Of a stretch of DNA of 64,000 nt, positions 3,545 to 41,254 are shown piece by piece. Made by a program: the position numbers and the translations under genes. This DNA comes from Bacillaceae bacterium. Lineage in GTDB: Bacteria; Bacillota; Bacilli; JACDOE01. The notes under the pieces are model-generated. The model did not search any database. It worked only from the letters and a program-made list of their open reading frames with translations, and was not told where the DNA came from. Numbering within the stretch: the first letter of the stretch is position 1; the number at the start of each line of letters is the position of its first letter. Location of the stretch: positions 36,400 through 100,399 of the forward strand of contig JACDOE010000010.1 of the NCBI GenBank assembly GCA_017656255.1, in the 5' to 3' direction.

Positions 3545-3920
3545 TTATTTTCGTTCCGGATGTTTGCGGTAAAATTCATGCAGCAGCTTCATCAAGGCCC
3601 TTTTTTCAATCCGGGAGACATAGGAACGTGAAATCCCCAGCTCTCTGGCAATTTCCCGCTGCGTCTTTTCTTCTCCCGATTCAAGCCCGAACCGGCCGAT
3701 GATCACCTCCTTTTCTCTTTTATCCAGCACGTGAATGTTTTTGTAGATCTTGCTTCGTTCGATTTTGAATTCCACTTTGTCGATGACTTCGTTGGCGTCT
3801 GTTCCGAGGATATCCATCAGGCTGATTTCGTTACCTTCTTTGTCGGTGCCGATTGGATCGTGGAGGGAAACGTCTTTGCGGGTTTTTTTGAGGGAGCGCA
3901 GGTGCATGAGGATTTCATTT
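3545..3920 (-). pseudogene. sigK: Orphan sigK 3' fragment (codons ~122-245 plus stop)
   Basis: Nucleotide-identical to 8150-8526 of the intact sigK except one synonymous difference (3551 vs 8156); identity ends abruptly at 3920 where AT-rich DNA begins; lacks the sigK 5' half. Confidence 0.85.
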
Positions 3921-4024
3921 CTAAAGTCAATATTTGAGCTATAAATTTGTTATATGAATGTTTATTCTCTTTCTTTAAAAAAATCTATAATAAAAACTAT
4001 TATAAGTTTCATATACTCACTAAC

Positions 4025-4816: not shown

Positions 4817-4926
4817 TCTATTGATTAAACTTTTATAGGGTAAATTTATATGAATGTTTATAATTTACCTCTTTAATTTTAAAACATACCACTAATGTTG
4901 CATAAATAGTTACAGAAAATCCAGAT

Positions 4927-5460
4927 TTATATGTTTGCGTGGAAATGGGCTAAAAAGCCAAATGCTAAAGTAAAATGTCCATTTAGAGTTGCAACGATAT
5001 AGATTTTCTTATGGACTACCTCGGATTTCCCATTGAATTTGGCGAACCATTTTTGAAAGGGATTTAATGTTTGTAACCAACGTTTGAAGAAGGGATTGCT
5101 TTGTTCTGTTTCCACGAGTAAACAATTTGTGATTAGGGCGGATTAAAGTCGGTTTTGAACCACCGTTTCCCATTTATACCATAAAAACCCTTTATTCAAA
5201 CATGTTGCTTAAACTATTTGAATAACTTAATTCCCCAACGAAACCAGTAGGTGTTACTAATCTGTTTAGCACTAATATCAAAGCGACTAGTAACGAATAT
5301 CTTTGCCTTGTGAGTCTACCGTTTCCACTAATTGAAATTCATTTTCGGTTCGCTTTACGTAGTTCCGATGACAAAGAGTCTAAGGAAATCGTTTTTATTT
5401 CAGATATAGCAAAGTGCTTGATTGTACAGTTCAACAACGGAATTTTTCTTGAGTCGTGAA
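4927..5460 (-). pseudogene. Possible degraded DDE transposase (IS remnant)
   Basis: Minus-strand frames give stop-interrupted peptides resembling transposase C-termini (ENEFQLVETVDSQGKDIRY, DISAKQISNTYWFRWGIKLFK); family not assigned. Confidence 0.25.
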
Positions 5461-5932
5461 GCAAAAGAAAATCCTTTAATAAGAAAAGCGATCAAAAAAC
5501 GTACATAGATTCTTTTTAGTCAATCAAAATCTCATGTTGCTAAAATTTGTTCACACGTTAAGAGTGATGATGACTTTCTCCGTAGATGGTACCGAAATCG
5601 ATAAATGCCAAACTTAAGTATAGTTTTACCCCTGCTTTTGTTTTTTGCGAAAGGATTCTCACTGGTAGTTTGTTAAATACATGTAGAATAATACTTGAAT
5701 TAATGATTTATAGATCAACTCATTTACCAAATAACTTGTCACATAGCGTTTTCCTTTCCTTTACTTTAGATTTGGATAGGGATCACCTATACTCTCCATT
5801 GTAAAGGATTTATAACACTTGCAGATCGAACATTCATTGTATTTTTAATACTCTGATTTAATTATTACAATACTAATACATAACAATCTGAATTATAAAT
5901 ATTATTCAAAGATTAACTTTGAAAGGTGCGTT

Positions 5933-8149: not shown

Positions 8150-8887
8150 TTATTTGCGTTCCGGATGTTTGCGGTAAAATTCATGCAGCAGCTTCATCAA
8201 GGCCCTTTTTTCAATCCGGGAGACATAGGAACGTGAAATCCCCAGCTCTCTGGCAATTTCCCGCTGCGTCTTTTCTTCTCCCGATTCAAGCCCGAACCGG
8301 CCGATGATCACCTCCTTTTCTCTTTTATCCAGCACGTGAATGTTTTTGTAGATCTTGCTTCGTTCGATTTTGAATTCCACTTTGTCGATGACTTCGTTGG
8401 CGTCTGTTCCGAGGATATCCATCAGGCTGATTTCGTTACCTTCTTTGTCGGTGCCGATTGGATCGTGGAGGGAAACGTCTTTGCGGGTTTTTTTGAGGGA
8501 GCGCAGGTGCATGAGGATTTCATTTTCAATACATCTTGCTGCGTATGTGGCCAATTTGGTCCCTTTGTTTACCTTGTAACTTTCGATGGCCTTGATCAGC
8601 CCGATGGTGCCGATGGAGATCAAGTCTTCGCTGTCTTCGCCGGTGTTTTCAAATTTCTTGACGATATGCGCCACCAGGCGAAGGTTATGCTCGATCAGCA
8701 TATTCCGTGCCTCAACATCTCCCTGTTCCATCAAGCGTAAGTATTTCTCCTCGTCTTCTTCCGACAGTGGCTGGGGAAAGGCATTGTTCTTGACGTAGGA
8801 GACGAACAGAATCAGTTCTTTGTACAGAAGCGCCAGTAACCCGAGCAGTCCAGACACCCGATCCCACCTCCAGGAATAGTGCTTCAT
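8150..8887 (-). CDS. sigK: RNA polymerase sporulation sigma factor sigma-K (pro-sigma-K), intact
   Basis: 245-aa ORF with pro-sequence and conserved sigma-70 regions 2-4 ([84 protein letters not shown]), closely matching B. subtilis SigK from memory. Confidence 0.9.
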
Positions 8888-9061
8888 TTATGCCTATTCC
8901 CTTCTGGGCTTGTTTGTGTCTGTACTAAAAAAACTGTAATCAGTTTTATTTGCTTTTTTAAATTCTTTAAGTAAGTATCATATAACACCATAACAGACAG
9001 TAAAAGACAAGATCCCGGTTTGAATACCGAGATCATCACAGTAACTTAATACATCTCTAAT

Positions 9062-9562
9062 TTAATTAACCTTCTGATCATAAAACGCAATGGCCTCATC
9101 TATTAATTTTTCAAGATGTGGTTTAAGTTCAATTGCTTTTGATTTAGCTTTGTGTGTGTCATAGCCTAAATCAATTAAAAATGCATATGTACTAACCATT
9201 TCCAAAAACTGAGAACTTTCCTTGACCATAGAATTCAAAAGATCAGTATTAATTTTTAAAGAGTATCCTCCATCAGCTTCTAAAGTTTCTTTAAATGCTT
9301 TCCCCTTCTTAGTAATAGAGTACACATAAGCTTCATCGTTTTTTGATTCAGTTAGAAATCCTTGTTGTACTAAAGTATTTATCTCTTCTTGAAGTTCTGC
9401 AGAATATGGGCCATAAAAGTGGTATTCATACTTAAATGGTAAATCTAATCCGGCTGATTCAAGCAAATGCACCATCTTTTGTACCTTTTTTCGACCGTGT
9501 ACCTTTTTAATTTCATCAAACAGACTCAATAAACTGTAGGCTCCTTCGAACAATTCAATCAC
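9062..9562 (-). CDS. Panacea (DUF4065)-like protein, possible antitoxin-type partner of the HD protein
   Basis: GRKKVQKMVHLL...FYGPYS resembles the Panacea/SocA-like signature; start overlaps the HD gene stop (ATGA). Confidence 0.35.
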   Translation of the reverse strand: MIELFEGAYSLLSLFDEIKKVHGRKKVQKMVHLLESAGLDLPFKYEYHFYGPYSAELQEEINTLVQQGFLTESKNDEAYVYSITKKGKAFKETLEADGGYSLKINTDLLNSMVKESSQFLEMVSTYAFLIDLGYDTHKAKSKAIELKPHLEKLIDEAIAFYDQKVN

Positions 9563-10869
9563 CCTCCAAAAATTTCATTTTTATAATCTTCGGGCATAAA
9601 GTATCTATCTATAGAGATTTTTTTATTTCTAATTCCATTAATTATATCAGAGATCACTGATAATTCTGTACCATTTCCGTTATTATCAAATAAAATTATT
9701 TGCTCTGAAGCTTCACGTTCGCCTTCTTTTTCATCCGTTTTGGGCGTATGAAAAATATAGGGATCTTTGTATGAACTACTTTTAGCTTCGTCCATTAGAA
9801 AGTAGTACTTAATTGGAATGCCTTTTTTGTTTGAATATTCGAATACCTCCTGCCAAAACTCCATAGGACTTTTGTCTGGAATGGAAACTGACTTAAAAAA
9901 CTTTCTTCTTAATAGTCGAGTACAAAGATCGCTCAATATCGAATCTTGGTGTCTACTCCATATCGAAATAAAATACCAAATCGTATTATCTGTTAAATTA
10001 ATATAATTATGTAGTGTTTCTTTAAGGTTGCCTTTTTCTGATAAAATCCGAATCAAATCTTCAGGAAATTCAATCTCCTGTTTTTCTTGAAAAATCTCAT
10101 AAGCTCTATTAAATATTTTATCTACTAGTAGTTCAGCGCTCCGAGTTGTTTTGTGAAAATACACATTCATATACATATAGTACCTTGCCATAACAAAATC
10201 TTCGGCTATACTAATACCTTTTTCAAGATCTAACCCTACCTCAATTTGACCATTATATTCACCGATTCTCAATACATTTATCATCCATTCAAGATCGAAT
10301 GAACCGTAGCCTGCACCAGTCATTTTAGAGTCTCTTAATAAATAATCAATTCTATCTGTATCTAACTGACTTGATAACAATTTCACAAGAGCTTTGGATC
10401 TATGAGTTCGTTGAATAACATCAGCAACTTCATCTGGGTCCACATTGTACTTTTTGAGAACGCTATTGATTTCTGTATCCCCACGTATTATTTCTATTGT
10501 CCACTTTTCATGTCTAACGCCAGTTGTTTTTTCTAAAGCATGGGAAAAAGGGCCATGCCCAATATCATGTAGGAGTGCTGCAGTTAATGCTAACATTCTA
10601 TTATCAGCTAGCTCTTGAGAATATTGTTTGTATTGTTCATCCTTTAAGCTACATATCTTATTAATAAATCTTTTAGTTAAATGTGTCACACCAATAGAAT
10701 GAGCAAACCGAGTATGTTCGGCTCCTGGATATGTAAATGACGATAATCCAAGTTGTTTTATATGGCGTAGTCTTTGAAATTCTTGGGTATCTATTAATTC
10801 CAAAAGCAAAGCATCTGATTCTTTATCAAAATGAATAATATTATGTACGGGATCACGAATAGTTTTCAC
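9559..10869 (-). CDS. HD-domain dNTP triphosphohydrolase-like protein (dGTPase/SAMHD1 family)
   Basis: Motifs RFAHSIGV, LLHDIGHGPFSH, DTDRIDYLLRD characteristic of HD dNTPases; 436 aa. Confidence 0.7.
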   Translation of the reverse strand: MKTIRDPVHNIIHFDKESDALLLELIDTQEFQRLRHIKQLGLSSFTYPGAEHTRFAHSIGVTHLTKRFINKICSLKDEQYKQYSQELADNRMLALTAALLHDIGHGPFSHALEKTTGVRHEKWTIEIIRGDTEINSVLKKYNVDPDEVADVIQRTHRSKALVKLLSSQLDTDRIDYLLRDSKMTGAGYGSFDLEWMINVLRIGEYNGQIEVGLDLEKGISIAEDFVMARYYMYMNVYFHKTTRSAELLVDKIFNRAYEIFQEKQEIEFPEDLIRILSEKGNLKETLHNYINLTDNTIWYFISIWSRHQDSILSDLCTRLLRRKFFKSVSIPDKSPMEFWQEVFEYSNKKGIPIKYYFLMDEAKSSSYKDPYIFHTPKTDEKEGEREASEQIILFDNNGNGTELSVISDIINGIRNKKISIDRYFMPEDYKNEIFGG

Positions 10870-10917
10870 ATTATCACCCCATTATAAAACTCTTTAATTA
10901 TTATCTAACTCGACAAA

Positions 10918-11556
10918 CTAGAATGCATTGTGTTTTCCCATTTGTCTCAGTACTTCTAATCTATCTAAACAACTTGTACATAATAAGCAATGTCGATCCC
11001 CTAAAGCATTACAAGAAAAGGTTTTTTCTATTGGTACTGACATGTTAATTGCCTCATCAATTACAATCTGTCTGTCTAAACCCACAAATGGAGTGATCAA
11101 TTCAAATTCATGAAGTGATTCTGAAAGAGTAGTAGATATGCTCTCTATAAATGACTTACTTGTATCCTTATAAGATCTTGACCCAGTCACACCTATTGCT
11201 ATTTTTCGTATATCGTTTTTATACGCATATGCTCCAGCCAAAGATATTAAAATCATATTTCTGTTCGGAAAAAACTCGGTATTAAACCATTCTTCTGCTG
11301 AATATCCTGATTGAGGACTATCCCCCACAAGTGATCCAGAGCCAAGGTGCTTCATATTAGAAATGTCTAAAAATAAGACTTTATCCGCATACTCATTTCC
11401 TATTATTGATTTAATTGCTCTAATTTCGCCAGACACTGTTACTTGCCCATAGTTAATATGAATAGGGAATATATCGTATTTTCTTTTTCGCAACCAATAA
11501 TAAAGAACAACAGAATCAATGCCCCCTGATAATAATAATACGACTTTTTTTCTCAT
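10918..11556 (-). CDS. QueC-like PP-loop ATPase (7-cyano-7-deazaguanine synthase family)
   Basis: PP-loop SGGIDS near the N-terminus and a C-terminal Cys cluster (C-x8-C-x2-C-x2-C) as in QueC. Confidence 0.75.
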   Translation of the reverse strand: MRKKVVLLLSGGIDSVVLYYWLRKRKYDIFPIHINYGQVTVSGEIRAIKSIIGNEYADKVLFLDISNMKHLGSGSLVGDSPQSGYSAEEWFNTEFFPNRNMILISLAGAYAYKNDIRKIAIGVTGSRSYKDTSKSFIESISTTLSESLHEFELITPFVGLDRQIVIDEAINMSVPIEKTFSCNALGDRHCLLCTSCLDRLEVLRQMGKHNAF

Positions 11557-12818
11557 AATATATACAACTTCTCTATTAATTCTTCAATAGATTCAACTAT
11601 AACATTACAACCATAAACTAGCATATTATTTAATTCAAACTGTGAGGTTTTTAAAGCAATTATAGGGATACCTCTTTCATAAGCAAACCCAACTTCAAAA
11701 CATGTACCCGGATCATTATGATCTAACAATGCTACCACAACATCAGATTGTCTTATCAAGTCAAGATCTTTATCAAAAATATTTTTGCGTTCATCCATTG
11801 GTGTGTCTTTCTTTATAATTCCATTTTCTCGTAGAGGTGATAAAACTTTAAATCCACAATTTTCTATTCTATTCGTTATTAATTTAACCCAATCCTCTTC
11901 CTGTTTACTAAAAAATGGACCTGCCAAGTAAACGCTTTTGTCTGAATTACCAGATACAACAATTTCTCTTCTGTCCATATCTTCTTCTACCGCTACTCTA
12001 TTTATTATATTTTCAATTGTAAAATTCTCAATGAAGTTAGCAGCAACACAACTTGCTAACCTCGTACTATACTCAATATCCCTCGTCCTGAGAAATGTAG
12101 CAGCTAATGCACCACCAAAAACATCACCAGAGCCTAAAGTGCATTTAACATTACTTTTATACGCCGGTATATGTATAGTCTTTCCTTCGTTTACTAGAAT
12201 ACAACCTTTATATCCTCTTTTTACGATTATGTACTTAGGCCCCATATGAATTAACTTTTCAATAGCATTCTCTAAAGTATTTGCTTGAGTTAATAATAAA
12301 ACCTCTTCCTCATTTACTAAAAGTACAGATACATATTCTAAAATTTTTCTAGCATCATGAATTGATTTGCTATTTGGTTTTGGGTCAAGAAAAACAGGAA
12401 TATTTTTTTCACATGCTTGCTTACATAAATCTTCCGGAAGCGAGTGATCCACTGGAAATACTAAGATACCCTCACATTCATCACTTAGCTGTGGATTATA
12501 TTCAATACCGATTTTAACATCTATCAAAGGAGTACTTTTTTTAACTTCATAAGCTTTATAACCTTTTACTAAATATTTTGGCAGACAATAATTTTCCATA
12601 TATTTAGCACTCGAAAAACTTACACCCATTAAGTTCCATATTTTTATACTATATGAATCGATTTCGGGCCCGTATACTGTCATAAACTCAACATTGATGC
12701 CTTGTTTTGCTGCAGATATTGATGCATATAAACCGGCTCCCCCAAATCTATCGATAATCTTTGTATCATAATCTAATAATAAGTCAATACCTATCTCTCC
12801 GTATACAGCAATATTCAT
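11553..12818 (-). CDS. PfkB-family kinase fused to a nucleoside 2-deoxyribosyltransferase-like domain
   Basis: N-terminal ribokinase-like motifs (GGAGLY; TLGSGDVFGGALAA); C-terminal NDT/Rcl-like motifs (VYLAGPFF; DPGTCFEVGFA with putative catalytic Glu). Start set at the internal Met with a GAGGTG RBS; the track ORF runs to 12866. Confidence 0.6.
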   Translation of the reverse strand: MNIAVYGEIGIDLLLDYDTKIIDRFGGAGLYASISAAKQGINVEFMTVYGPEIDSYSIKIWNLMGVSFSSAKYMENYCLPKYLVKGYKAYEVKKSTPLIDVKIGIEYNPQLSDECEGILVFPVDHSLPEDLCKQACEKNIPVFLDPKPNSKSIHDARKILEYVSVLLVNEEEVLLLTQANTLENAIEKLIHMGPKYIIVKRGYKGCILVNEGKTIHIPAYKSNVKCTLGSGDVFGGALAATFLRTRDIEYSTRLASCVAANFIENFTIENIINRVAVEEDMDRREIVVSGNSDKSVYLAGPFFSKQEEDWVKLITNRIENCGFKVLSPLRENGIIKKDTPMDERKNIFDKDLDLIRQSDVVVALLDHNDPGTCFEVGFAYERGIPIIALKTSQFELNNMLVYGCNVIVESIEELIEKLYIL

Positions 12819-12823
12819 CGGTA

Positions 12824-13534
12824 TCACCTCACGAATTGAAAGTATCCGTTTCTCCCTAATATCCATAATAAATAGTCCATCTTACCTAAAGGCACTCCAA
12901 TCTTCAAGCAAATAATTCGTAATGCTTCTTCATATTGTAAGTAAACCTTTTCTGTTATGTTTTTAGGAATATTATATCCTAAGTAACCAAGAAATCTTAG
13001 TATATGGATATCCAGTACTGCACAATCATTATTAAATCCTGTATTCCTTAATAGCCAACTAGCTGATTTCATGCCAATACCTGGACATTCACATAGCCAT
13101 GTTCTAGCATCAAATGAATTAAGTTCATTAAGTTTATCAAATAATCTCCAGTGACAGTTCTCCCAAAGCCAATATCCAGCCTTGGATATAACCTTAGGCT
13201 TCGTTTCCACAAATCTATATTTTCTGAACTGGCCGTTACAAGTAATGGGATAAAACTGCTTTTTTGATAACTCTCTCTTTATTACATTTTCAATTATATA
13301 TAAGTTAGATATAGAGGAATAATATTTTGCTTCGATTAACCCTTTATTCTTTAATACATGTAAACCTGATTTGTTTAACTCATAACTGATTCCAAATCCT
13401 CCAAGAACTACGAAAAAAAATTCATCTATAACTTGTTCATTAGATTTTGAAACAAACGAAAACTCTCTTTCAATTGCAATACCATAAGTTTCCCAAAGTT
13501 CTTTTAACACATTGAATGCTCTAGTATTTTCCAT
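12824..13534 (-). CDS. Ogg-type HhH-GPD DNA glycosylase-like protein
   Basis: Helix-hairpin-helix with Lys (CPGIGMKSASWLL) followed by an Asp motif (VLDIHILR), matching the 8-oxoguanine glycosylase/AP lyase pattern. Confidence 0.6.
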   Translation of the reverse strand: MENTRAFNVLKELWETYGIAIEREFSFVSKSNEQVIDEFFFVVLGGFGISYELNKSGLHVLKNKGLIEAKYYSSISNLYIIENVIKRELSKKQFYPITCNGQFRKYRFVETKPKVISKAGYWLWENCHWRLFDKLNELNSFDARTWLCECPGIGMKSASWLLRNTGFNNDCAVLDIHILRFLGYLGYNIPKNITEKVYLQYEEALRIICLKIGVPLGKMDYLLWILGRNGYFQFVR

Positions 13535-13540
13535 ATCACT

Positions 13541-13891
13541 TTACGCCTCTACCTCTACTGTAACCTTCGGGTCATGTTGATTCCCTTCTTTTTTTATTAC
13601 AACCCCCTTGTATTCCCACCCTTCTTCAATACATTTTAAGAGCCAACTGTATTTTGGAGGAACGACCCCTATACTAAAATTATCTTTTTCTTTTTTTACT
13701 TCCATGACCGGCAATGTATCATCATTTCTTAAGATAATAGACACTTCATCATTCACAGAAACATTTCTCCACACTGCTTTTTGATTCTCATTAACAATTA
13801 ATAAAATTGTAACTTTTTCACCGCATCTATTTACTGTTTTTCCAGTTCCTCCTCCAAAACCACCAAATGATGAAAAGCCACCACTTCCCAT
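13541..13891 (-). CDS. Small protein with glycine-rich N-terminus (unknown function)
   Basis: 116 aa; N-terminal GSGGFSSFGGFGGG; strong RBS (TAAGGAGGA); first or second gene of the block B operon. Confidence 0.4.
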   Translation of the reverse strand: MGSGGFSSFGGFGGGTGKTVNRCGEKVTILLIVNENQKAVWRNVSVNDEVSIILRNDDTLPVMEVKKEKDNFSIGVVPPKYSWLLKCIEEGWEYKGVVIKKEGNQHDPKVTVEVEA

Positions 13892-14024
13892 ATAAATCCT
13901 CCTTACTAGTTATTTTTTTTTTTGCAATCTTTATAATACTCCAAAACTATTTATATTTAAATTAAATGAAATCTCATTTTGATCACTTCTTTTGTAAATT
14001 GTCTAATGTGCTTAGAATATGTTA

Positions 14025-14450
14025 TTATTTCTCTAGACCAAATTCTCTTTTTAATTTATTAAAGTCATATTCTTTTATTTCGATTGGGATACTAAGGTTC
14101 TTAAGTTTTGACATCAAATCGCTTTTATTAACAACAGGTTTGTCCTCGTAAACAATTGCGAATATCAATTTAAAATTATTTATTGAAGCACTGTCTAAAT
14201 TTTTAGCTGTCTGATATAACGATTCAATAACATTACGAGTTAACTTACCTCGTTTATTATATTTTATCTCAAATCCATAAGTTGAATTATCAGTTTTACT
14301 AATACCATCAATTTCAATTAACTTATCAGAAGATTTAAATGCCATGTGTCTCTGAATAGGAATTTTAAATTCTTGTTCAAGTTTCCTAAACACCAAATCT
14401 TCAGCTAAAAAGTATTGCATTTTGGGATCAACAGTCACTTTGGAAGGCAT
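14025..14450 (-). CDS. Hypothetical protein, possible PD-(D/E)xK-like fold
   Basis: 141 aa; spaced D...E-x-K residues (IEIDG, FEIKY); weak RBS; in-frame open sequence upstream without an ATG suggests possible truncation. Confidence 0.3.
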   Translation of the reverse strand: MPSKVTVDPKMQYFLAEDLVFRKLEQEFKIPIQRHMAFKSSDKLIEIDGISKTDNSTYGFEIKYNKRGKLTRNVIESLYQTAKNLDSASINNFKLIFAIVYEDKPVVNKSDLMSKLKNLSIPIEIKEYDFNKLKREFGLEK

Positions 14451-15283
14451 GTCTAACGTACCCGCTTTATCCTCTTCAATATTATTATCACTAGAAGATT
14501 CTTCAAGCTCTGCTTCTGCTTTCTTTCTTTGTGAATCACTAGTTAATTTTAAGAAATTCCCTTCATCCTTAAAATCACTTGGCGCATATAATTTGGTATG
14601 ATAAAAATCACAAGTCTATAAAATGTAAATAAAACAAGTAAAGGGAAAATTACTATGAAACACACAAGGAACCATTTTTGAGAAACATTTAATTCCGAAC
14701 TAAATTGAAGTACTAATGCTGCTATTCCATAAATTAGTGATATAAATAATGCAATGATACCTAAGGGGTTCTTTGTAAAACCTGATGCACTTCTCGTGAA
14801 TTCTATTATTATCGCTCACCTTCCTTGTAAAAATTTTAAAATGATGCCAACGTTACTCATTCTTAATACCAATCCAAATCATATCCGTGGACAAAAATGG
14901 CTGGAAAATATAAAACATGTCTGAGTATCAAAAAATTAATCTTTTAATATAACATTCTTCTCTTTTTTCTCATTAACTCCTCCTAGCTTTTGTGCACACC
15001 AATATATTAAAAAACAATCTTCAAAACTATACTTACTCCTTTTAGATCAAAGATCAAAAAATCCCTAACAAAAAAATTAGTGTTTATTCTCAATTGTATT
15101 TCGGTAAAAAAACAGATAATCCCTTTTAGGACAAATAAAAAATAATTAGTAAGGATATCACTCTATACTATATACTTATCTGAATTAATAGGTTTAATTG
15201 GTTTTATAATTATCTTCTTTTAGCTATTTGAAACCCCCCCTGACCCAGCACCACACCAGCATTCTTCCGACATCGCTTCGTGT

Positions 15284-15561
15284 TCACAACCTCTTGACGA
15301 TATGCGCCACCAGGCGAAGGTTATGTTCGATCAGCATATTTCGCGCCTCAACATCTCCCTGTTCCATCAAGCGTAAGTATTTCTCCTCGTCTTCTTCCGA
15401 CAGTGGCTGGGGAAAGGCATTGTTCTTGACGTAGGAGACGAACAGAATCAGTTCTTTGTACAGAAGCGCCAGTAACCCGAGCAGTCCAGACACCCGATCC
15501 CACCTCCAGGAATAGTGCTTCATTTATGCCTATTCCCTTTTGGGCTTGTTTGTGTCTGTAC
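15284..15561 (-). pseudogene. sigK: Orphan sigK 5' fragment (36-bp leader plus codons 1-77, then VKRL-stop)
   Basis: 15292-15561 matches 8654-8925 of the intact sigK with 4 mismatches, all synonymous or in the leader; homology ends at codon 77/78. Confidence 0.85.
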
Positions 15562-15742
15562 CGGAGATTTGTTTTTGCTCTTTTGTTAAAAACTGTTTAA
15601 GCATTTTTAACACTAGCGTTCTCAAATAAATTTAATGTTTCTGTCCTTCACTTCTTTTTTCTACAAGTAAACAAACATCCCGCAATACCTTAATAGTAAT
15701 GCGGGATATTATGAGAACCTTTTAGACATACCCTTCTTTACC

Positions 15743-18346
15743 TTATAACCTCGGGTCAATTTCTTTCTCTTTACTTACTTCAAATAGCATGTTAGCAACC
15801 ACCTGTTTATATTTATGATCTGACTCATTTATTTTATCTAAATGAAAGGCCAACATCTCTTTCCCAAGTTTGAATTCATTGATAGAGGTTTTTAGTTTCT
15901 TTGAAATATTTTTTTGCTTTAAAAGCTTGGCATATTTGTGTGGAAAGCGATAATCATATCCATAAACAATGGTTAAATAATCTGGATTGCGAACTTTCAT
16001 ATAAGGGGCAGTATCATCTGCCAATTTTTCAGGTTTAATCACGACACCTTCCATTTTTCTTTCTGTTGTCAAAGTCTTAAAAAAGGTTAAAGCTTTTTCA
16101 TAATAATCCTGTTCGTTTAAATCGATCAACATAAATTCATCATCAGATACAAACTTAAAAATTTCCGATGTTGATTCTGCAGGGATGATCTCTTCTCCAT
16201 TTTCCTTGACCATTTTTAAAATATTAAATGGTTTATAGTTAATCTCATCATCCTTTGCATAGAGCTCGATTTGTTCATGATATTTTTGATGGGCTTCCAC
16301 ATGTTTTTCTATTGGTTCATATGACTTTAACATAGTTTGCAACGCCTTATAAGTCTGGTAAGTGGCACCGCCAAACTTTTTAATCAAATCTTTCTTAGAC
16401 ATTGTTTGCTGATCGACTTCATAGTCACTTGATTTATATTGCTCAACAAGTTTTTGAAAGTGGGCATCAAAGCCTTGCTCCTTTAAAAAATCCAACTCTG
16501 TTTGTAAAGCTCTGTCTATAGTCCTAAATTGCTTTTCAATCAATTCCTCTCCCAAAATAGACCAGGGCAGTAATTCACCATCAAACACGATTGTTTTTAT
16601 TTTATTCTCTTTCATGTAATCCGAAAATTTATTTAACAGATTATCATATACCGGAGACAAATCCACTTTCTTAATTTTAAATCCATTTCGACTCACTGCA
16701 TAACATTGATCTAGTTCCCTTGCTAAGTAAATGTTACATCTTGACCCCATGTACTTCGGTTGCAAAACCACTTTATGGACGCCTTTTCTCTTAAAATACA
16801 ACAACCCCTGTTTTAAAGATTCCAATTCATTGCTATCCAAATCTTTGTCAGCCGGCGACATGGTACCAGAAATATAATTAATCTTATTTTTCAAGACATA
16901 ATTAAGGCGCTTTTGGTCCTGTTCATGTAAATCCTCGATGTTAACATGTTTATCTCTTTGTTTAAATAAAGTAGGTAAAGGTTCGTTCCAGTATTTACTA
17001 GTGCTTGTAATTCGCTGCTGTTTAAAAAACGGTCTCCAGGAGTCAATCACAACAGAAGAAAGAACATTTCCATTGGCAGCTCCCGTATCAATGTTAATCT
17101 TATTTTTAATTTGGACTATTTCTTTTACAGCAACATGTCCAAAAATATGATACGGATGATTTCCAACACTCTCTGACTCCAGAAAGTGCAATTGCTCCTC
17201 GTAGGGTTTTTCTCGATCAAGAACAAAGCTTCTTTGCTTTTTCAGAGACGTTTTATCTAACTTCCCTATATATTTGTTTTGACACGGAGCATGTGTCACA
17301 TAAAAGGAAGGCTTTTGTAATCCAATATACCTGTAGAATTCTTTCGAAGATTCAACGAGTCGGAAAAATTTGTGTTTTAAATCCTCATCCTTTTCAAAGA
17401 TTTCTATAGAGTCAAAGTAGTTGTCTAGTAAACTTGAATCTACTGAATTCTTATCAATTTCACCTTTCAAGTATTTGTAAACAAAATTCTCATGATTTCC
17501 TTTTACAAGCACAAAATGATCCATATTTTGTTCAATAAATTCTACCGTCTCTTTGGTAGCATTTCCTTTGTCAATCCAGTCTCCGTTAAGAATAATTTTA
17601 TATTCATCCGTTTTTTCAGTGGATAAAATACGATTATTTTCAATATTAAACCCATAGCTGATAAGCAGCTTTTTTAAATCAGCCACTTTTTCATGAACAT
17701 CTCCAACAATTATATATTTGTGTTCCTGCGGCAAAATATGACTGAGATAATGATCTAAATCCTCTATCATAATTTTATAATTTGCATTCGGTTCATTGGT
17801 ATCAGGGTTATAGAAATCCCGCTCCCTAATTTTGTGTATTCGACGAAATTTTGACTTTGAAATTTGTTTCAGAACCTCTCTTTTGAGACGAGTGACATGA
17901 TTTGAAATTAATCGTCTTGAACCACCTGAAGCATAGAAATCTTCTCTATTTTTAAAATCAAAAAGTATAGCTTCCAGGTTATATTGCTTTTCTTTAGCAA
18001 TTTCCATGATTTGCTCACGGAATTCTTCTGAAAGGCCAATTGTATCAACAATGACGAACTCGGCGTTAATTGGAAATGACGTAACGGCTTTTAGTTTCTC
18101 AAATAAAATATGAAAGGCTTGTTCGCTGCTTTCCATCATAATTCTGTCATGTTTGTCATATTCATGTCCCAAAATATCCTGCCTGATTTCATCAGAGGAA
18201 ATATATTGAACATTGGTTTTAAAGCCCCGATCCTTATCCTGAATAGAAAGTTGAGGCAACAATATTTCTTTAGCAAATGTTGATTTACCGGAATTAGTAG
18301 CACCAATTAACATAAATATGGTATGCATATTTGTTTTTAATTCCAT
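15743..18346 (-). CDS. pnkp: Polynucleotide kinase-phosphatase (Pnkp): kinase, metallophosphatase and ligase-like domains
   Basis: 867 aa; P-loop GATNSGKST; calcineurin-like GDVHEK and GNHE motifs; C-terminal domain with a KYMGSR lysine motif; size and order match bacterial Pnkp. Confidence 0.8.
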   Translation of the reverse strand: MELKTNMHTIFMLIGATNSGKSTFAKEILLPQLSIQDKDRGFKTNVQYISSDEIRQDILGHEYDKHDRIMMESSEQAFHILFEKLKAVTSFPINAEFVIVDTIGLSEEFREQIMEIAKEKQYNLEAILFDFKNREDFYASGGSRRLISNHVTRLKREVLKQISKSKFRRIHKIRERDFYNPDTNEPNANYKIMIEDLDHYLSHILPQEHKYIIVGDVHEKVADLKKLLISYGFNIENNRILSTEKTDEYKIILNGDWIDKGNATKETVEFIEQNMDHFVLVKGNHENFVYKYLKGEIDKNSVDSSLLDNYFDSIEIFEKDEDLKHKFFRLVESSKEFYRYIGLQKPSFYVTHAPCQNKYIGKLDKTSLKKQRSFVLDREKPYEEQLHFLESESVGNHPYHIFGHVAVKEIVQIKNKINIDTGAANGNVLSSVVIDSWRPFFKQQRITSTSKYWNEPLPTLFKQRDKHVNIEDLHEQDQKRLNYVLKNKINYISGTMSPADKDLDSNELESLKQGLLYFKRKGVHKVVLQPKYMGSRCNIYLARELDQCYAVSRNGFKIKKVDLSPVYDNLLNKFSDYMKENKIKTIVFDGELLPWSILGEELIEKQFRTIDRALQTELDFLKEQGFDAHFQKLVEQYKSSDYEVDQQTMSKKDLIKKFGGATYQTYKALQTMLKSYEPIEKHVEAHQKYHEQIELYAKDDEINYKPFNILKMVKENGEEIIPAESTSEIFKFVSDDEFMLIDLNEQDYYEKALTFFKTLTTERKMEGVVIKPEKLADDTAPYMKVRNPDYLTIVYGYDYRFPHKYAKLLKQKNISKKLKTSINEFKLGKEMLAFHLDKINESDHKYKQVVANMLFEVSKEKEIDPRL

Positions 18347-19618
18347 TTACTTTTCACCTCTTGCTTTAACCAAAACTCCCTGAGTGGTATAAACCCCGTC
18401 TACACAATCGCCAATACTTAAATGATGAATCTCAAAATCTCGTTCATCAAAAATCTCACTTATCCATTGTTTAAATTCATTTGTCCCCATTTCCCATTTA
18501 TGATCTTCATGCCGATATTCATCCAGGGAATAATACTTATTAAAATCATGATTTGGAGTCGTTATAATAATGGATTCAAAATGAATGTCATCAAGAATTG
18601 TTAAAATTAGTTTTTTAGCCTCATCCTTCTCCATGTGTTCAATGACTTCTGTAAGGATGACATCAACTAATTCCCCATTGTAATCTTCAATAAAATCCTC
18701 AATGGATCCATAAGTTAATATATTTTCAATACCCCTTTTTTTAATTCTTGCATCCAGCGAACGAATGATATCTTCATCAATGTCAATGGCATAATAGTAT
18801 TTGTCACCTATACTTTCGGAGAAAAGAAAGGCATAATAACCTTCCCCACATCCAACATCAACAATTGGTTTGTTGAAGGGTAATAACTTTTTTATCGCTT
18901 CTCTTCTTTGGTGAGCTGTATGTCCGTAAGAAAAGTTTATGTCATACCTTTGTGTTTCTTCCAGGCTTTCTTTAAATTTTGAAAATAATTTCCTGCTGGT
19001 AAGTATGTTTCGTGCAAACAGATACCTTATAAAAAACGGAGCATCCAGGACTTTAATTTGATTAACATACTTTTCAATCAAACTATCTGTAACATCAAGG
19101 TATTCGTTACCTATTAAAGATAAAAATAAAAACAATAGATTAGCTGTATTCAATAAATCATAAATACTTTTGTTCGTTTTGATTTTAATTGAATAGCTCT
19201 TGTGAGATTGATGAATCATTTCGATAGAGAAATCCTCAAAATGTTTGCTAAAAAAATCTATATATCTTGGTAGTGTGATATGAACCATATTCACAAATAA
19301 TTCATTTTCATATCCTTCAAGATCATTATCATACCGGTTTTTGATTGTGGAATTAAAGAATTCTGTCATTGCGTTTAATGGAAAAAGAGGTGTATTATAT
19401 CTTGAAACATTTAGATATTCAAAGCTTTCTTCTTTATGTTGCTTGTAAGATATCTCGTTGTCAGCGTCCTTAAAATATATATTGTAGGTTTGATCATCAG
19501 AATACCAGCCAAACGCAATTCCCTGTCTGACTGTACGCAACATCATGCCTGAAGCTGGATTTTTGCGTATTAAAAAAGAAAAGTGCGGATTCGTTGATTT
19601 TAACTGAACAATAGCCAT
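18347..19618 (-). CDS. hen1: Hen1-like RNA 3'-terminal ribose 2'-O-methyltransferase
   Basis: 423 aa; C-terminal class I MTase motif (VDVGCGEGYY); stop abuts the pnkp start. Confidence 0.7.
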   Translation of the reverse strand: MAIVQLKSTNPHFSFLIRKNPASGMMLRTVRQGIAFGWYSDDQTYNIYFKDADNEISYKQHKEESFEYLNVSRYNTPLFPLNAMTEFFNSTIKNRYDNDLEGYENELFVNMVHITLPRYIDFFSKHFEDFSIEMIHQSHKSYSIKIKTNKSIYDLLNTANLLFLFLSLIGNEYLDVTDSLIEKYVNQIKVLDAPFFIRYLFARNILTSRKLFSKFKESLEETQRYDINFSYGHTAHQRREAIKKLLPFNKPIVDVGCGEGYYAFLFSESIGDKYYYAIDIDEDIIRSLDARIKKRGIENILTYGSIEDFIEDYNGELVDVILTEVIEHMEKDEAKKLILTILDDIHFESIIITTPNHDFNKYYSLDEYRHEDHKWEMGTNEFKQWISEIFDERDFEIHHLSIGDCVDGVYTTQGVLVKARGEK

Positions 19619-19773
19619 CTACTTTCACTCCTGTTATTTCCCTCAATCATTTTCCAATAAACCAATAAACTTTAATTGCTATACTAACCTGATTCCCAGT
19701 TCAAAAGAATAATCAAATAAAATATGAAAAGAGGAAAAATGTAGTCCCCTTTTCCTAGTGCTTGGTAAAAATA

Positions 19774-21105
19774 TCATGCTTTTGAAGATATACAACACAA
19801 CATAAAGAGACCAATTATGAATCCATATAAGATTAAAATCCAGTAGCATAAACTTAACACATACTTTCTTTTGATTCGTCGTCTCATCTGAATCCAATAT
19901 TCAATTATAGAGGCTTTAAGTAATATTCGGACATAAAAAAATTGATATATCATAACTAGCAATATAATCCCCGCTGTCATTATTGTCGCAAGTAACAACT
20001 TGAACCAAAAAGAAACAGTTTGAATATCAATCATCATAATAAATAGTAATATGCTGCCCCCTGTTCCTAATGCAATCAGTAACAGCATAGATAAAGAAGC
20101 AATAATTCTTTTAGATAGGGAAATATGGTCAATATTTAACGTTTCCTCCAAAACTTCTTTGTTCTCCTCATGATTTTTTAGTTCGTCAAGATTTTCAATA
20201 CCTCTTAAATCAAAAAAGTCTCTAAACTTATCTAAAAACCACTTAGCTATATCATGTGCATCTTTTTCAAGTTCTTCAGAACGAAGAGATAATTGGATAT
20301 ACTTTTCATCTTTATCTGTCGTGTCTTCAATAACACCTTTAACTCCCTCTCCCCTTCTATCAATCTGGATATACATAAGTAATTGATCCTCTTTAATTTG
20401 AAAAATTATCTGAATTTCATCCATCTTATCCCATAGAATTTCCTTTATCGGTTTAAAATCGTATATAAACATAAAAGGTTTCTCATCACTATAGGTATAA
20501 AAAGAGTTGAAATTCATTCTCATATTATCAATAGACACATGGGATTCTGTTTTTAAATTCTTTTTATATCCTTGCCAATTTTTAAACTGATACAAAATGT
20601 AAGATAATGAAAAACCAAGTTCTTTCTGAAGAGCTTCAATTACTTTTTGTACCCATGGATGAGGGAAAACATTAATTTCGTTATATTCCTTCCAATTTGG
20701 CCACTTGTCAAGGGAGCATATCGTGTCAATCGATATATGAAAGAATCCTTTAGAAACCAAATCCTTATCTCCATTTTCTGATTCTTTTACATTGTGAACG
20801 GCAATAGGGGTATCATAGGGAACCTGAAAAGAAAAGGAAAATTCTAATTTTTCACCAATTTCAATTTTACGTTCTTTTGCAATCGTAGTTTTTAACAGTG
20901 GGACACGAGAATATATTAAGTCGTCACGGGTATCCATTTTTGTTGTAATCTGAATGACTAATTCCTTAATTATTCTTTCCTGTATTCCTCCCTGAACTAT
21001 TACTTTGCCCGATACTTGTTCACCGGGGCGGTAATAATTTTTATCCAGAATAGTCTTGATTGCTATATCTCCATGTCTTAGCCTCCAAAGCTTTTTTCTT
21101 AACAT
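19774..21105 (-). CDS. Spo0M-like (arrestin-like) protein fused to a C-terminal multi-pass membrane domain
   Basis: N-terminus DKNYYRPGEQVSGKVIVQGG resembles Spo0M; the C-terminal ~130 aa are strongly hydrophobic. Confidence 0.45.
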   Translation of the reverse strand: MLRKKLWRLRHGDIAIKTILDKNYYRPGEQVSGKVIVQGGIQERIIKELVIQITTKMDTRDDLIYSRVPLLKTTIAKERKIEIGEKLEFSFSFQVPYDTPIAVHNVKESENGDKDLVSKGFFHISIDTICSLDKWPNWKEYNEINVFPHPWVQKVIEALQKELGFSLSYILYQFKNWQGYKKNLKTESHVSIDNMRMNFNSFYTYSDEKPFMFIYDFKPIKEILWDKMDEIQIIFQIKEDQLLMYIQIDRRGEGVKGVIEDTTDKDEKYIQLSLRSEELEKDAHDIAKWFLDKFRDFFDLRGIENLDELKNHEENKEVLEETLNIDHISLSKRIIASLSMLLLIALGTGGSILLFIMMIDIQTVSFWFKLLLATIMTAGIILLVMIYQFFYVRILLKASIIEYWIQMRRRIKRKYVLSLCYWILILYGFIIGLFMLCCISSKA

Positions 21106-21664
21106 ATTTTCACCTACTCCTTAAAAGCCTTTTATCAATTTCATATTCTACAAATTTCAACAATTACCTTTAAGTAGAAAAGGCATAAAGAAAGGAGATA
21201 AATATTGCCGCTAATCCCCATGGCTAAATAATGGGCCAAAAGAGAGTAAGATTGCAGATTGTCCTTATTATTATTTTGATCTGGCCAGTACATATCAGGG
21301 TGCTCTATAAGATATTCCTTTTAATCTTTGTAGTCGAATCTTTTGATACCCCCCATCTGAACTCTCGGAAGTGACAATTTCGATGTTAGCACCTAAATCT
21401 TTTAAACGGTTATATAATTATATCCCTTGATAACATTCTTAGAGCTATTTCAAATGTCCCCGATGTCGTTTATAATATGACTACCTTTTCTTATAAACTT
21501 CTTTTCTTCTGCTTTTTGTAGAATATGTTTTAGGTTAACTTCATAATATAAAAACTTGCCCCCAAACAAATTTTTCTCTAATGGTCTATTCCAGGTAATA
21601 CATAATCTGAAAAAGGCCAACCTTTTGTAGGAAAGCCAAACATATAAATACCCTCCCTAAAAAA

Positions 21665-22810
21665 TCAAAAAGATAAACCTTTAAAACCATGAGAGGTGGA
21701 AATGGCCAGGATTCTGTCAGATTCATCCACCTCATGTTTAAGTTGTGTGATAGCACTCCAGATCGTGGCTGACGACGTTTCCAAATACAATCCATATCTC
21801 CCTAATTCCTGTTGACTTTGCAACGCATTTTGAAGGTTAACGACTTTGACCAGGCCCTTTGTATCAGTAATCGTCTTTTTTAACTGATACGTTACCGTTG
21901 ACCCACTGATAGAAGGAAGGCCATCAGATACACCTGCAAAATGATTTCTGTAATCTTCACCTTTTATGACACGCGTTAATCTGGGAAACGGTTCCACCGC
22001 TACAAATTTTGGGATTTCATTAATCCATCCAAGTTCTCTGGCGTCCCTGAAACCGCGATATATGCCCCAGATTAAATCGCCTCGAGAAGCTGGCGCTACA
22101 ATAATACTCGGCAGCGTCTCTTTCAGTTCTTCCATAATTTCATAGGCAATCGTTTTATATCCTTCAACCCCAAACACATGACTGCCGACGGGTGGGTTAA
22201 TGAAATTTGTTGCAGGATACCACCCTTTGTTTGAAACGGCTTTCTCCATACAGTCCCAGCGACTCAATGAAGTTTGCGTATAAATCATTTTGGCTCCGGT
22301 CATTTTAATCGCTTTAGAGTATGTCTTCTGAATGGCATCCGTAGCGATAATGACACATTTCAGACCAGAAGCAGCACTATAACTGGCTATCGACACGCCG
22401 GCATTGCCTGATGAAGCGGCCACCACTGTCGAATACCCCATGTTCTTCGCTCTTGCCATGATGAGAGGACTCATTCGATCTTTGTGAGAACCGGTCGGAT
22501 TTTGAGCTTCATTTTTGATCCAGACATGGCGAACACCGATTTGTCTGGCTAAATCCCTTAATTCCATGATAGGAGTCGATCCTTCTCCCAATGTAGGAAA
22601 AGAACGATAAGGCAATAAATCGGTGTATCTTTGTAAGCCTCTTTGTGACCGGTCAATATTAACTTTTTGATAATCATACAGAGCAGTCAAACTGGCCGGA
22701 TACCCTTCTTCCAGACAAAGAGGACATCCTTTGAAATAATCTTTGACTTCAAAGATAGAATGACATCGAATGCATTGGAAACCGATCATATTTTTGTTTA
22801 ATTGATACAT
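21665..22810 (-). CDS. PLP-dependent threonine synthase-like enzyme with N-terminal zinc ribbon
   Basis: PLP-lysine motif TGSHKDR, glycine-rich SSGNAG loop, N-terminal CxxC...CxxC; start set at the internal Met with a GGGGA RBS. Confidence 0.55.
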   Translation of the reverse strand: MYQLNKNMIGFQCIRCHSIFEVKDYFKGCPLCLEEGYPASLTALYDYQKVNIDRSQRGLQRYTDLLPYRSFPTLGEGSTPIMELRDLARQIGVRHVWIKNEAQNPTGSHKDRMSPLIMARAKNMGYSTVVAASSGNAGVSIASYSAASGLKCVIIATDAIQKTYSKAIKMTGAKMIYTQTSLSRWDCMEKAVSNKGWYPATNFINPPVGSHVFGVEGYKTIAYEIMEELKETLPSIIVAPASRGDLIWGIYRGFRDARELGWINEIPKFVAVEPFPRLTRVIKGEDYRNHFAGVSDGLPSISGSTVTYQLKKTITDTKGLVKVVNLQNALQSQQELGRYGLYLETSSATIWSAITQLKHEVDESDRILAISTSHGFKGLSF

Positions 22811-26863: not shown

Positions 26864-26903
26864 TTGTTACACCCATACTCGCGGGTATGTTTGTAACAGA
26901 ACT
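26864..26903. repeat. Intergenic palindromic repeat, copy 2
   Basis: TTTGTTACACCCATACTCGCGGGTATGTTTGTAACAGAAC between the radical SAM and TetR genes. Confidence 0.55.
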
Positions 26904-37281: not shown

Positions 37282-37296
37282 TAAATGTAAGATCTG

Positions 37297-39033: not shown

Positions 39034-39074
39034 TGTCCTACTCCCATCCTTTTAATCTGTCTTTGTATATGAAT

Positions 39075-39235
39075 ATAAAAAGACTATTTCAACCATATGA
39101 AATAGCCTCCGTTACCTGTAGATGCACGTTCCCTGAAGCTGGTTCTCTCTTCGGTAACCCGGCATCTGTTCGATCTGATTTCAGACACCTGGGCTTTGCG
39201 CCCCCATCTCTCAATGAGTTTGCCGTTTCGGAGTT
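39075..39235 (-). ncRNA. c-di-GMP-I (GEMM) riboswitch with terminator-like expression platform, leader of MCP gene 1
   Basis: Minus strand ACGGCAAACUCAUUGAGAGAUGGGGGCGCAAAGCC...GCCGGGUUACCGAAG matches the Vc2 c-di-GMP-I aptamer core from memory; followed by hairpin CUAUUUCA-N6-UGAAAUAG plus U-run. Confidence 0.75.
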
Positions 39236-39479
39236 CATTATGTATTTGTGACAAAAACATGAAAGTTTTTCCTGTAAAACAATTAATAATATACGACAAT
39301 TTTTTATATTTTTCAACATCTGCAGTGTAAAATTGCAGTTAAAAAGTACTATTTCCTTTGTACCAGTAGGTGATCAGGGAATTCGCAAAAAATTATTTTG
39401 CACGTCGTTAAATAGTCTGTCTGAAACAAAATAAAAATGCCGCCACTCCCGAAGGAGTAACGGCATGATCTGACCGCTG

Positions 39480-41219: not shown

Positions 41220-41254
41220 ATGTAGCTTCCCATCCTTCTTTTCTTTTTGATGAT

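Follow-up and report, generated by a model that had tools for sequence, protein, structure and literature searches.

A 64,000-nucleotide stretch of a Bacillaceae metagenome-assembled genome (MAG; GCA_017656255.1, contig JACDOE010000010.1, positions 36,400 to 100,399 of the forward strand; hereafter the window, numbered from its first nucleotide) carries an intact sigK gene and, on the same strand, an orphan sigK 5' fragment that breaks off after codon 77. Elements that interrupt sigK are a textbook case of developmentally regulated gene reconstitution. Judged by its junction, the orphan fragment is the attL of a skin-like sigK-intervening element inserted at a position here called site A. We consider it likely that such a scar, its union with a complete sigK by homologous recombination, and an incidental expression of the fragment together account for the locus. 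The junction is a relic left by an element of a known kind (sigK intervening, serine recombinase type), and the arrangement recurs in several genomes; we know of no earlier description of a scar, an intact gene, and recombinase-less cargo side by side. The features on which this reading depends are the following (a slash within a peptide or motif marks the break or cleavage point).

15292 to 15561, minus strand: duplicated sigK 5' block, with the promoter, the 5' untranslated region, and the codons of the first 67 residues counted from GTG
15294 to 15295, minus strand: inferred crossover dinucleotide AA in GTC-AA-G (attB of site A, HIVK/KF; nucleotides 199 and 200 from GTG)
15258 to 15293, minus strand: P' arm (GAGGTTGTGAACACGAAGCGATGTCGGAAGAATGCT) of a palindromic attP, matching the P arm of other loci (ACATCGnTTCGTGTTCACAAC) when reverse complemented
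8150 to 8925, minus strand: intact sigK with its promoter (coding sequence, 8150 to 8887, 245 amino acids [aa] from ATG; promoter box, 8916 to 8925; GTG, 8857; stop codon, 8150 to 8152)

Junction of the orphan sigK fragment with an attP arm

The identity of the orphan to intact sigK stops after ...CATATCGTCAAGA, and the frame then continues with R-L-stop, giving a 79-aa open reading frame (ORF; 15284 to 15523). Diverged sigK was considered as an origin for the GC-rich sequence after the break and was rejected, since tblastn found no real sigK similarity past codon 77 of the orphan. The sequence that follows GTC-AA, GAGGTTGTGAACACGAAGCGATGT, corresponds instead to one arm of a palindromic attP. 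The reverse complement of positions 15270 to 15291, ACATCGCTTCGTGTTCACAACC, matches the P arm at 19 to 20 of 22 positions and also matches the element-side sequence that adjoins sigK 3' fragments at the identical site in four related loci (L058, L054, L010, and L064). In these four loci, the element-side motif preceding the 3' fragments reads ACATCG..T..TGT(T/C)CACA..GTCAA, and the reverse complement of the window sequence just past the break (GGTTGTGAACACGAAGCGATGT) is the same motif. The attP of the family has a central AA and can be written as ACATCGnTTCGTGTTCACAACnTC-AA-GAGGTTGTGAACACGAAnCGATGT or as ACATCGGTTCGTGTTCACAACCTC-AA-GAGGTTGTGAACACGAAGCGATGT.

A metagenome scan for the arm joined to sigK yielded 34 contigs, comprising 28 attR junctions, 4 attL junctions, 1 attP-like contig (L133), in which the P-AA-P' arrangement is seen and the window arm is recognizable as a half-site of an imperfect palindrome, and 1 contig (L118) with a non-sigK flank. 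The attL contigs besides L135 (described below) were L116, L122, L125, and L149. The window breakpoint coincides with the attB used by bona fide elements in the four related loci, in the 32 metagenome contigs with sigK at the junction, and in L135; in all, 33 metagenome junctions share this AA. The ORF tails at the metagenome attL junctions read HIVKRL-stop, HIVKTL-stop, or HIVKRLW..., and the VKRL-stop tail of the orphan is not accidental but encoded by the attP arm.

In L117, L120, L131, L133, L135, and L138, the arm contains the 3' end of an ORF of 546 to 580 aa (...DIGSCSQPQ) whose product has Resolvase, Recombinase, and Zn_ribbon_recom domains. L135 (Ga0207866_1000062) is a complete element of 6,021 bp, in which a serine recombinase gene and a gerA-type operon lie between a promoter-bearing sigK 5' half and a 3' half, and joining the two halves at AA restores the full SigK ORF. 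These junctions show that elements of this family use a large serine recombinase to integrate into sigK at the AA of GTC-AA-G (HIVK/KF). No Resolvase or Recombinase domain was found with Pfam in the ORFs or translated gaps of the window, the noncoding gaps compared with Pfam contained no recombinase remnants (4817 to 5932 in all six frames and 14451 to 15291 in four of six), and a tblastn search with nine family recombinases against both window strands matched only the palindromic arm. Because the recombinase is gone from the window yet present in the complete relatives, the window holds a relic and not an active element. Nor is there a partner attR: no P arm occurs elsewhere in the window, and the intact gene, which has a perfect attB, is the only place where sigK continues past codon 77. 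Without a recombinase and attR, sporulation-specific excision is impossible here.

Beside the site-A serine recombinase, L133, L120, and L118 also encode a conserved protein of 252 to 253 aa of unknown function, together with ORFs of ~500, 375, and 313 aa. In L133, the one contig of the three so analyzed with Pfam, all three of the latter have Phage_integrase domains and form a tyrosine recombinase trio; L120 has ORFs with N termini matching this trio, and L118 has partial ones. The trio and the 252- to 253-aa protein might, for example, act in directionality control or belong to a nested element.

Extent and identity of the duplicated sigK block

On the minus strand, positions 15292 to 15561 form an ungapped repeat of positions 8656 to 8925 in intact sigK, with 266 of 270 nucleotides identical, a duplication far beyond chance. 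Three of the four mismatches are synonymous third-position changes (GCA/GCG, CGG/CGA, and GAG/GAA), and the fourth lies upstream of the coding region. The earlier note on this DNA had described an orphan sigK 5' fragment with the first 77 codons running into VKRL-stop, which the alignment and the 15284-to-15523 ORF confirm. It had also proposed that the fragment derives from a functional allele; this agrees with the coding differences, which are without exception synonymous, a pattern that related genomes display far more strongly.

The intact SigK has the same sequence as the protein that carries the SigK annotation in a Bacillaceae MAG, and the next homologue in the search has 85% identity. 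Exact-protein look-ups of the 245-, 235-, 79-, and 120-aa products gave no match, and the homologue search found neither a same-species genome nor an uninterrupted sigK allele in the databases. In the intact protein, the Pfam domains Sigma70_r2 and Sigma70_r4 cover residues 64 to 133 and 184 to 233, respectively; the orphan ends at residue 77 (ATG numbering) and does not have the complete regions 2 and 4 of a functional sigma-70 family protein. Rfam and tRNA scans revealed no RNA genes near the fragment.

Related loci with a sigK fragment beside an intact sigK

Among the 85 related loci, 7 have a partial sigK near an intact sigK. The 3' fragments in Paenibacillus castaneae (L058), P. zeirhizosphaerae (L054), P. 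allorhizosphaerae (L010), and a Bacillota MAG (L064) start exactly at the window breakpoint (HIVK/KF). All four loci contain an intact sigK, a recombinase-less island of 1.7 to 10 kb (reaching the locus end in L064), the P arm, and a 3' fragment beginning with KKFDNTG. Their cargo varies: a LuxR/MalT-type regulator with an alcohol dehydrogenase, a leucine-rich repeat protein, or an ABC transporter. The ratios of synonymous to nonsynonymous differences between fragment and intact gene are 34:0 in L058, 24:0 in L064, 24:6 in L054, and 6:2 in L010, compared to 3:0 (5' fragment) and 1:0 (a 3' fragment described below) in the window. The L058 fragment thus encodes a protein sequence identical to that of the intact copy despite 34 synonymous codon changes, and homology there ends at the stop codon, as in the 3' block of the window. 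The 3' relics of L054, L010, and L064 are truncated or carry stop codons. Homology to the unique flanks of the window was not found by blastn in any of the fetched loci.

The window and these relatives show an afterlife of such elements, in which one att junction with a sigK fragment lies beside a whole sigK, the recombinase is gone, and new cargo (defense-like, regulatory, or transport) is present. For annotation, an orphan sigK that ends in ...HIVKRL-stop, or one that starts with KKFDNTG after ACATCG..TGTTCACA, is recognizable as an att scar of one recombinase family. L041, L048, and L080 have other partial sigK sequences near an intact sigK, with breakpoints around residues 105, 178, and 139, respectively.

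Second scar and organization of the locus

A third piece of sigK, which the earlier note had not listed, lies at the far end of the locus, and its identity to sigK ends at the stop codon. On the minus strand, the order is host DNA (~50% GC), an AT-rich segment (X3), the orphan 5' fragment, an island (X2), intact sigK, a second island (X1), the orphan 3' fragment, and host DNA.

3545 to 3924, minus strand: orphan sigK 3' fragment (codons 122 to 245 and the stop codon, with 1 synonymous mismatch), continuous with host-like DNA downstream
3925 to 3945, minus strand: element-side arm of the second att scar (attR, site B), with an AATGA/GAAAT motif in CIE/NEILMH; it resembles the arm in L139
3925 to 8146, minus strand: island X1, AT rich and without a recombinase gene, encoding a prenyltransferase-like protein, an MFS transporter, and an S-adenosylmethionine methyltransferase
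8926 to 15224, minus strand: island X2, ~32% GC and without a recombinase gene, with an 830-nucleotide noncoding stretch, two orphan ORFs, and a defense-like gene set
9011 to 9034, minus strand: predicted intrinsic terminator closing X2, ~85 nucleotides upstream of the promoter of the intact copy
15225 to 15257, minus strand: remaining GC-rich scar, judged by composition, ending where the AT-rich island starts
15562 to 21650, minus strand: AT-rich X3 upstream of the orphan, with a Pnkp/Hen1 pair, a Spo0M-like protein, and a PALP pseudogene remnant, contiguous with host DNA in an independent unitig
~15669 to 15707, 3' of the Pnkp gene: hairpin with a T-rich tail, read by eye

In the metagenome contig L139, sigK is split at site A and again at codon ~122, where a second element has its own serine recombinase and DarT/DarG-like cargo. 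By the same sequence reasoning as for site A, the orphan 3' fragment in the window is identified as the attR of a site-B element.

Promoter and start codon of sigK

The duplicated block opens with a conserved promoter.

15552 to 15561, minus strand: upstream promoter box GTACAGACAC, a -35 region possibly overlapping a SpoIIID-type site, at the start of the duplicated block
15526 to 15534, minus strand: -10 position AATAGGCAT, 17 nucleotides after the box (CATAnAnT in relatives), abutting the ATG at 15521 to 15523
15501 to 15507, minus strand: ribosome-binding site (RBS) GGAGGTG, 7 nucleotides before the GTG start
15284 to 15493, minus strand: probable truncated ORF of 69 aa, with a 20-aa pro-sequence, the S20/Y21 cleavage site, and regions 1.2 to 2.1 up to ...AHIVK, followed by R-L-stop

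With at most 2 mismatches to the consensus allowed, the box GTACAGGCAC followed after 17 nucleotides by CATA(c/a/g)A(a/c)T precedes sigK in 83 of the 85 related loci. The established -10 consensus sequences of sigma-E and sigma-K are CATAcA-T and CATA---TA, and GTACAGGCAC-17 nucleotides-CATA is arranged like a sigma-E/sigma-K promoter. Within the window, exact matches to the box are confined to 8916 to 8925 and 15552 to 15561, the first ten bases of each repeat, and the -10 sequence is AATAGGCAT in both sigK copies. A sigma-70 promoter scan gave 55 sites, with 54 expected, and was uninformative.

Since the core promoter, a strong RBS, and a start codon all lie inside the duplicated block, the orphan could be transcribed. 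A promoter of sigma-E/sigma-K form, for which the earlier note had suggested a search, is seen both in the relatives and in the two window copies. That note had made transcription depend on a promoter in the ~180 bp upstream of the fragment; the orphan does appear transcribable, but the promoter lies within the block itself. Its question as to which copy retained the native promoter no longer arises, as both carry the same core promoter. The RBS that it reported is present, whereas its 36-bp leader is a stretch of 38 nucleotides before the ATG and corresponds to the conserved promoter.

The SigK homologues of Ammoniphilus, Aneurinibacillus, Brevibacillus, and Paenibacillus (best identities, 83% to 85%) have their first aligned position at residue 11 of the annotated protein. 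Residue 11 is encoded by a GTG codon (15493 in the orphan and 8857 in the intact copy) that is preceded, 7 nucleotides upstream, by GGAGGTG, and a start at this codon gives a 20-aa pro-sequence ending in ...LFVS/YVKNN, as in Bacillus subtilis. The true start of the orphan is almost certainly the GTG at 15493, so that a product of 69 aa, not 79 aa, is predicted. The ATG overlaps or adjoins the -10 element and is probably absent from the mRNA, which itself argues for the shorter product. The 79-aa peptide of the earlier note thus exists as an ORF (15284 to 15523), but the homologues and the RBS place its start at GTG. With these data, the start codon and the promoter of sigK can be correctly placed. 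The public annotation of SigK (245 aa from the ATG at 8887) is probably 10 codons too long; homologues and RBS favor the GTG at 8857.

Origin of the scar next to an intact gene

Integration by a serine recombinase makes no duplication, and an extra step is therefore required to obtain a scar together with an intact gene. The repeat blocks span from the crossover to a functional end of the gene, namely, the promoter box in the 5' block and the stop codon in the 3' block. These exact block ends and the synonymous-only divergence imply that the copies are distinct functional alleles from different genomic contexts that were recently united, and the divergence pattern points to horizontal transfer followed by homologous recombination. 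A partial element joined to a flanking sigK fragment, produced by aberrant excision or by looping-out between such repeats, would have been transferred from another lineage. The incoming fragment would have recombined with the resident intact sigK inside the shared segment, either by a Campbell-type single crossover of a circular intermediate or by homology-anchored illegitimate recombination, with no integrase involved and sigK never inactivated. The outcome would be the AT-rich, recombinase-less X2 between the scar and the complete sigK, with the 270-nucleotide block as a direct repeat. The same logic at codon 121/122 could have left the attR-type scar with the sigK 3' fragment. This route, inferred from the allele patterns, is the most likely one, as it explains the synonymous-only differences and the exact block ends and needs no integrase. 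If such pieces travel between lineages by homologous recombination, a conserved sporulation gene serves as a landing pad for recombinase-less islands.

In-situ duplication and restoring integration rank below the homologous recombination route. In the former, a lysogen with a split sigK would have undergone a tandem duplication reaching from the promoter through the 5' half and attL into the left part of the element, followed by attL × attR excision from the second copy. Only one illegitimate junction and a standard excision would be needed, this history would account for the missing recombinase and attR as well as for the perfect attB of the intact sigK, and the copies in the window are indeed 98.5% to 99.7% identical. 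However, the ends of the duplication would need to fall exactly at the promoter box or the stop codon, all four coding differences in the window are synonymous, and in relatives the copies differ at 24 to 34 codons without amino acid change, which is incompatible with neutral decay of a local duplicate. We regard an origin in situ as unlikely.

Identity that reaches from the crossover as far as a functional end of sigK in both blocks, with synonymous differences, would also be expected if an attP-borne sigK promoter and 77 codons had rebuilt the gene and pushed aside its native 5' end, as prophages targeting tRNA genes or icd do. Restoration by an attP-carried gene fragment is a common strategy among integrative elements (PMC7192596). 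However, the displaced fragment adjoins an ordinary P' arm of an attP whose elements split sigK without restoring it (L135, L116, L122, L125, and L149), and a serine recombinase attP with one sigK-like arm would differ from the P-O-P' site of L133. As the family attP (P-AA-P') has no sigK part and neither X1 nor X2 encodes an integrase, restoring integration seems very unlikely.

Because the source of the window is a MAG, the junctions were checked against independent Logan unitigs of run SRR13776092. At 100% identity, one unitig covers 28346 to 15510 (host, X3, and the orphan promoter), another covers 15321 to 8874 (sigK codon 77, attL, X2, and the promoter of the intact copy), and a third covers 8096 to 3891 (X1, attR, and the 3' fragment). 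All truncating junctions are real. It could still be that the chromosome has one intact sigK and that the contig threads the repeats into DNA of other strains or small circles (X2 plus repeat and X1 plus repeat), given that the 270- and 380-nucleotide repeats exceed the usual k-mer sizes and that the unitigs break in them. Against this, the codon 77-P' arm and X1-codon 122 junctions are found in the independent unitigs, so that the sample must contain a molecule in which an attP arm is joined to a sigK fragment, and a circle with attL and a gene fragment arises only by direct-repeat recombination of the contig arrangement. Moreover, the copies are told apart by single-nucleotide polymorphisms, and the same architecture in the isolate genomes L058, L054, and L010 makes the arrangement credible. 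We judge an assembly artifact to be highly improbable.

Several points weigh against the explanation by a scar, homologous recombination, and incidental expression. The homologous recombination or Campbell step is derived from allele patterns, and without a same-species genome, the ancestral state and the direction of transfer are not reconstructable. The AT-rich X2 is unrelated to the complete elements found and may not derive from the original element. As the unitigs end inside the repeats, the order and linkage of the segments across the 270- and 380-nucleotide repeats depend on the MAG assembler. The family attP gave only chance matches in viruses and phages (two pattern scans of IMG/VR and blastn of a 50-nucleotide attP model against GenBank phages). 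Finally, the -10 sequence in the window begins with AATA and not CATA, so that the strength of the promoter is uncertain, and the predicted existence of an orphan RNA or peptide depends on sequence features.

Expression and possible function of the orphan product

The terminator-like hairpin after the Pnkp gene would insulate the fragment from upstream transcription. No terminator was detected in a scan after the orphan stop codon, and the 221 nucleotides downstream fold more weakly than all 200 shuffled controls. With the promoter, RBS, and start codon intact and no downstream terminator, transcription in the mother cell with read-through into X2 is plausible. The orphan is probably transcribed there by sigma-E/sigma-K RNA polymerase, which could yield a 69-aa pro-sigma-K stub and could continue into the island. 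The peptide most likely arises incidentally, with no function for which it was selected.

The 69-aa product would keep the features of a SpoIVFB substrate, namely, the pro-sequence, the S/Y cleavage site, ...ARNMLIEHN, and the helix packing against the interdomain linker, which has residues equivalent to L41, N53, and E57. Residues F18, V20, S21, K24, A27, F28, L41, E49, N53, and E57 of Pro-sigma-K were reported to contact the SpoIVFB cleft, reentrant loop, and interdomain linker (PMC11486902, PMC9042235), and all reported cleft and linker contact residues fall within residues 18 to 57 (B. subtilis numbering), inside the stub. It is mechanistically conceivable, by analogy with these contacts, that the stub competes for SpoIVFB. 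Competition for core RNA polymerase, which had also been proposed, is unsupported, as the fragment ends at the start of region 2.2 without most of the sigma-2 fold.

A functional module has nevertheless been considered, in which the stub acts as a SpoIVFB decoy or inhibitor that delays sigma-K activation, or the promoter puts the defense-like island under mother-cell control. The complete promoter, RBS, and start codon, the intact ORF with only synonymous changes, the retention of the pro-sequence, cleavage site, and SpoIVFB-contacting helix, and the lack of a terminator before the co-oriented island genes would all fit. However, a recently imported functional allele already accounts for the synonymous-only pattern, the sequence of the tail is set by the attP arm and differs from one attL junction to another, and the 3' relics in L054, L010, and L064, being truncated or interrupted by stop codons, show no sign of selection on relics. 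Residues 68 to 127 are missing from the stub as well, and with them the region around A97 that cross-links to the CBS domain (PMC9042235). A two-helix piece of sigma-2 is unlikely to be stable, and its binding to core polymerase is unlikely. Prince et al. are said to have found in 2005 that ~117 residues are needed for processing. A functional module is thus highly doubtful. Hardly more credible is the broader view that the scar, which excision can never remove, is not inert at all, the stub being coexpressed with pro-sigma-K in every sporulating mother cell as a decoy that tunes sigma-K timing, the promoter driving the defense-like island, and recombinase-less islands moving between lineages by means of the sigK homology arm. 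The peptide idea matters only if expression and an effect on SpoIVFB are demonstrated.

Comparison with known systems

The skin element of B. subtilis (spoIVCB and spoIIIC halves, the large serine recombinase SpoIVCA, and the directionality factor Skr) likewise owes its position within the sigK coding sequence to a large serine recombinase, and its 5' half, too, retains the sigma-E/sigma-K promoter and finishes with a short tail encoded by the element. In skin, the att sites are imperfect inverted repeats around a short core (PMC5025042, PMC6957869), reported as AATGA in B. subtilis (PMC10745906); the second scar of the window (site B) lies at that motif, a comparison made by description only. 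In contrast to skin, the codon 77 scar has a different site and attP and lacks a recombinase and a partner attR, and an intact germ line sigK lies beside it, so that excision is neither needed nor possible.

Island IV of Bacillus cereus biovar anthracis was reported at nucleotide 195 of sigK (PMC10745906), which, compared by description only, is a few bases from site A. As in the site-A elements, the serine recombinase ORF of this B. cereus group insertion overlaps an att arm (PMC10745906). Unlike the window, island IV is complete and excises during sporulation, and its recombinase gene is at the 5' fragment side on the opposite strand. The site-A metagenome elements such as L135 share with the window the AA crossover, the P and P' arms, and the type of truncated 5' ORF tail. 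They truly split sigK, however, and carry a recombinase, whereas the window has an attL half, unrelated AT-rich cargo, and a second, intact sigK.

Restoring prophages and islands (e14 and phage 21 at Escherichia coli icd; tRNA fragments at island ends) likewise leave a near-identical orphan fragment with mostly synonymous differences, and direct repeats flank the island. Their replacement fragment is in attP and accompanied by an integrase, whereas the attP arm in the window is nonrestoring and the duplication is best explained by homologous recombination. The SpoIVFB substrate Pro-sigma-K(1-127), used by Kroos and other laboratories, is like the orphan product an N-terminal piece with the pro-sequence and cleavage site, and the C-terminal half is dispensable for recognition (PMC9042235). 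The sigK-derived part of the orphan product stops at residue 67, however, and is without residues 68 to 127, including the CBS-cross-linking region.

Gene content of the islands and other features of the window

The X2 genes at 9062 to 13534 (minus strand) form a co-oriented cluster that encodes an Ogg-like protein, a fusion of PfkB and nucleoside deoxyribosyltransferase, a QueC-like protein, an HD/dGTPase-like protein, and a 166-aa protein that matches DarG C-terminal and LmuC models and has a DUF4364 match below the cutoff. Only QueC, dGTPase, and DarG/LmuC-type models were matched in PADLOC. The cluster presumably resembles the QueC/OGG accessory genes of type IV CBASS (cyclic oligonucleotide-based antiphage signaling system), the cyclase being absent here, and may represent an undescribed defense system. 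The two ORFs at 13541 to 14450 (minus strand; 116 and 141 aa) have no Pfam or PADLOC match; a homologue search for the 141-aa protein returned only itself among 5.8 billion proteins and nothing in IMG/VR.

Directly upstream of the orphan, the bacterial RNA repair pair of Pnkp (kinase-phosphatase-ligase, 867 aa) and Hen1 (423 aa) is encoded at 15743 to 19618 (minus strand), and a 443-aa Spo0M-domain protein is encoded upstream of this pair (19774 to 21105). Following a gene for a PALP enzyme, positions 21105 to 21665 (minus strand) contain an apparent decayed second PALP/SbnA-type remnant (...PDMYWPDQNNN...), which marks the approximate boundary between host-like and AT-rich DNA.

A conserved block at 56662 to 63694 (minus strand) comprises ruvX, DUF1292, yceG, a methyltransferase gene, two U32 peptidase genes, and a penicillin-binding protein gene. 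This block directly precedes sigK in Ammoniphilus-like relatives, and sigK lies 41 kb further on in the window. Its use as a guide to the native sigK flank was rejected, as the intervening DNA consists of ordinary metabolic, motility, and signaling genes.

Two tandem paralogous genes for methyl-accepting chemotaxis proteins (578 and 579 aa), partly 100% identical repeats, are located at 37294 to 41411, each preceded by a cyclic di-GMP-I riboswitch (39150 to 39234 and 41328 to 41411). A palindromic repeat of 34 to 38 nucleotides (TGTTACACCCATAC..GTATGTTTGTAACA) occurs in three copies in intergenic host DNA (499 to 536, 26865 to 26902, and 48385 to 48422) and could be a repetitive extragenic palindromic-like element or a set of shared bidirectional terminators.

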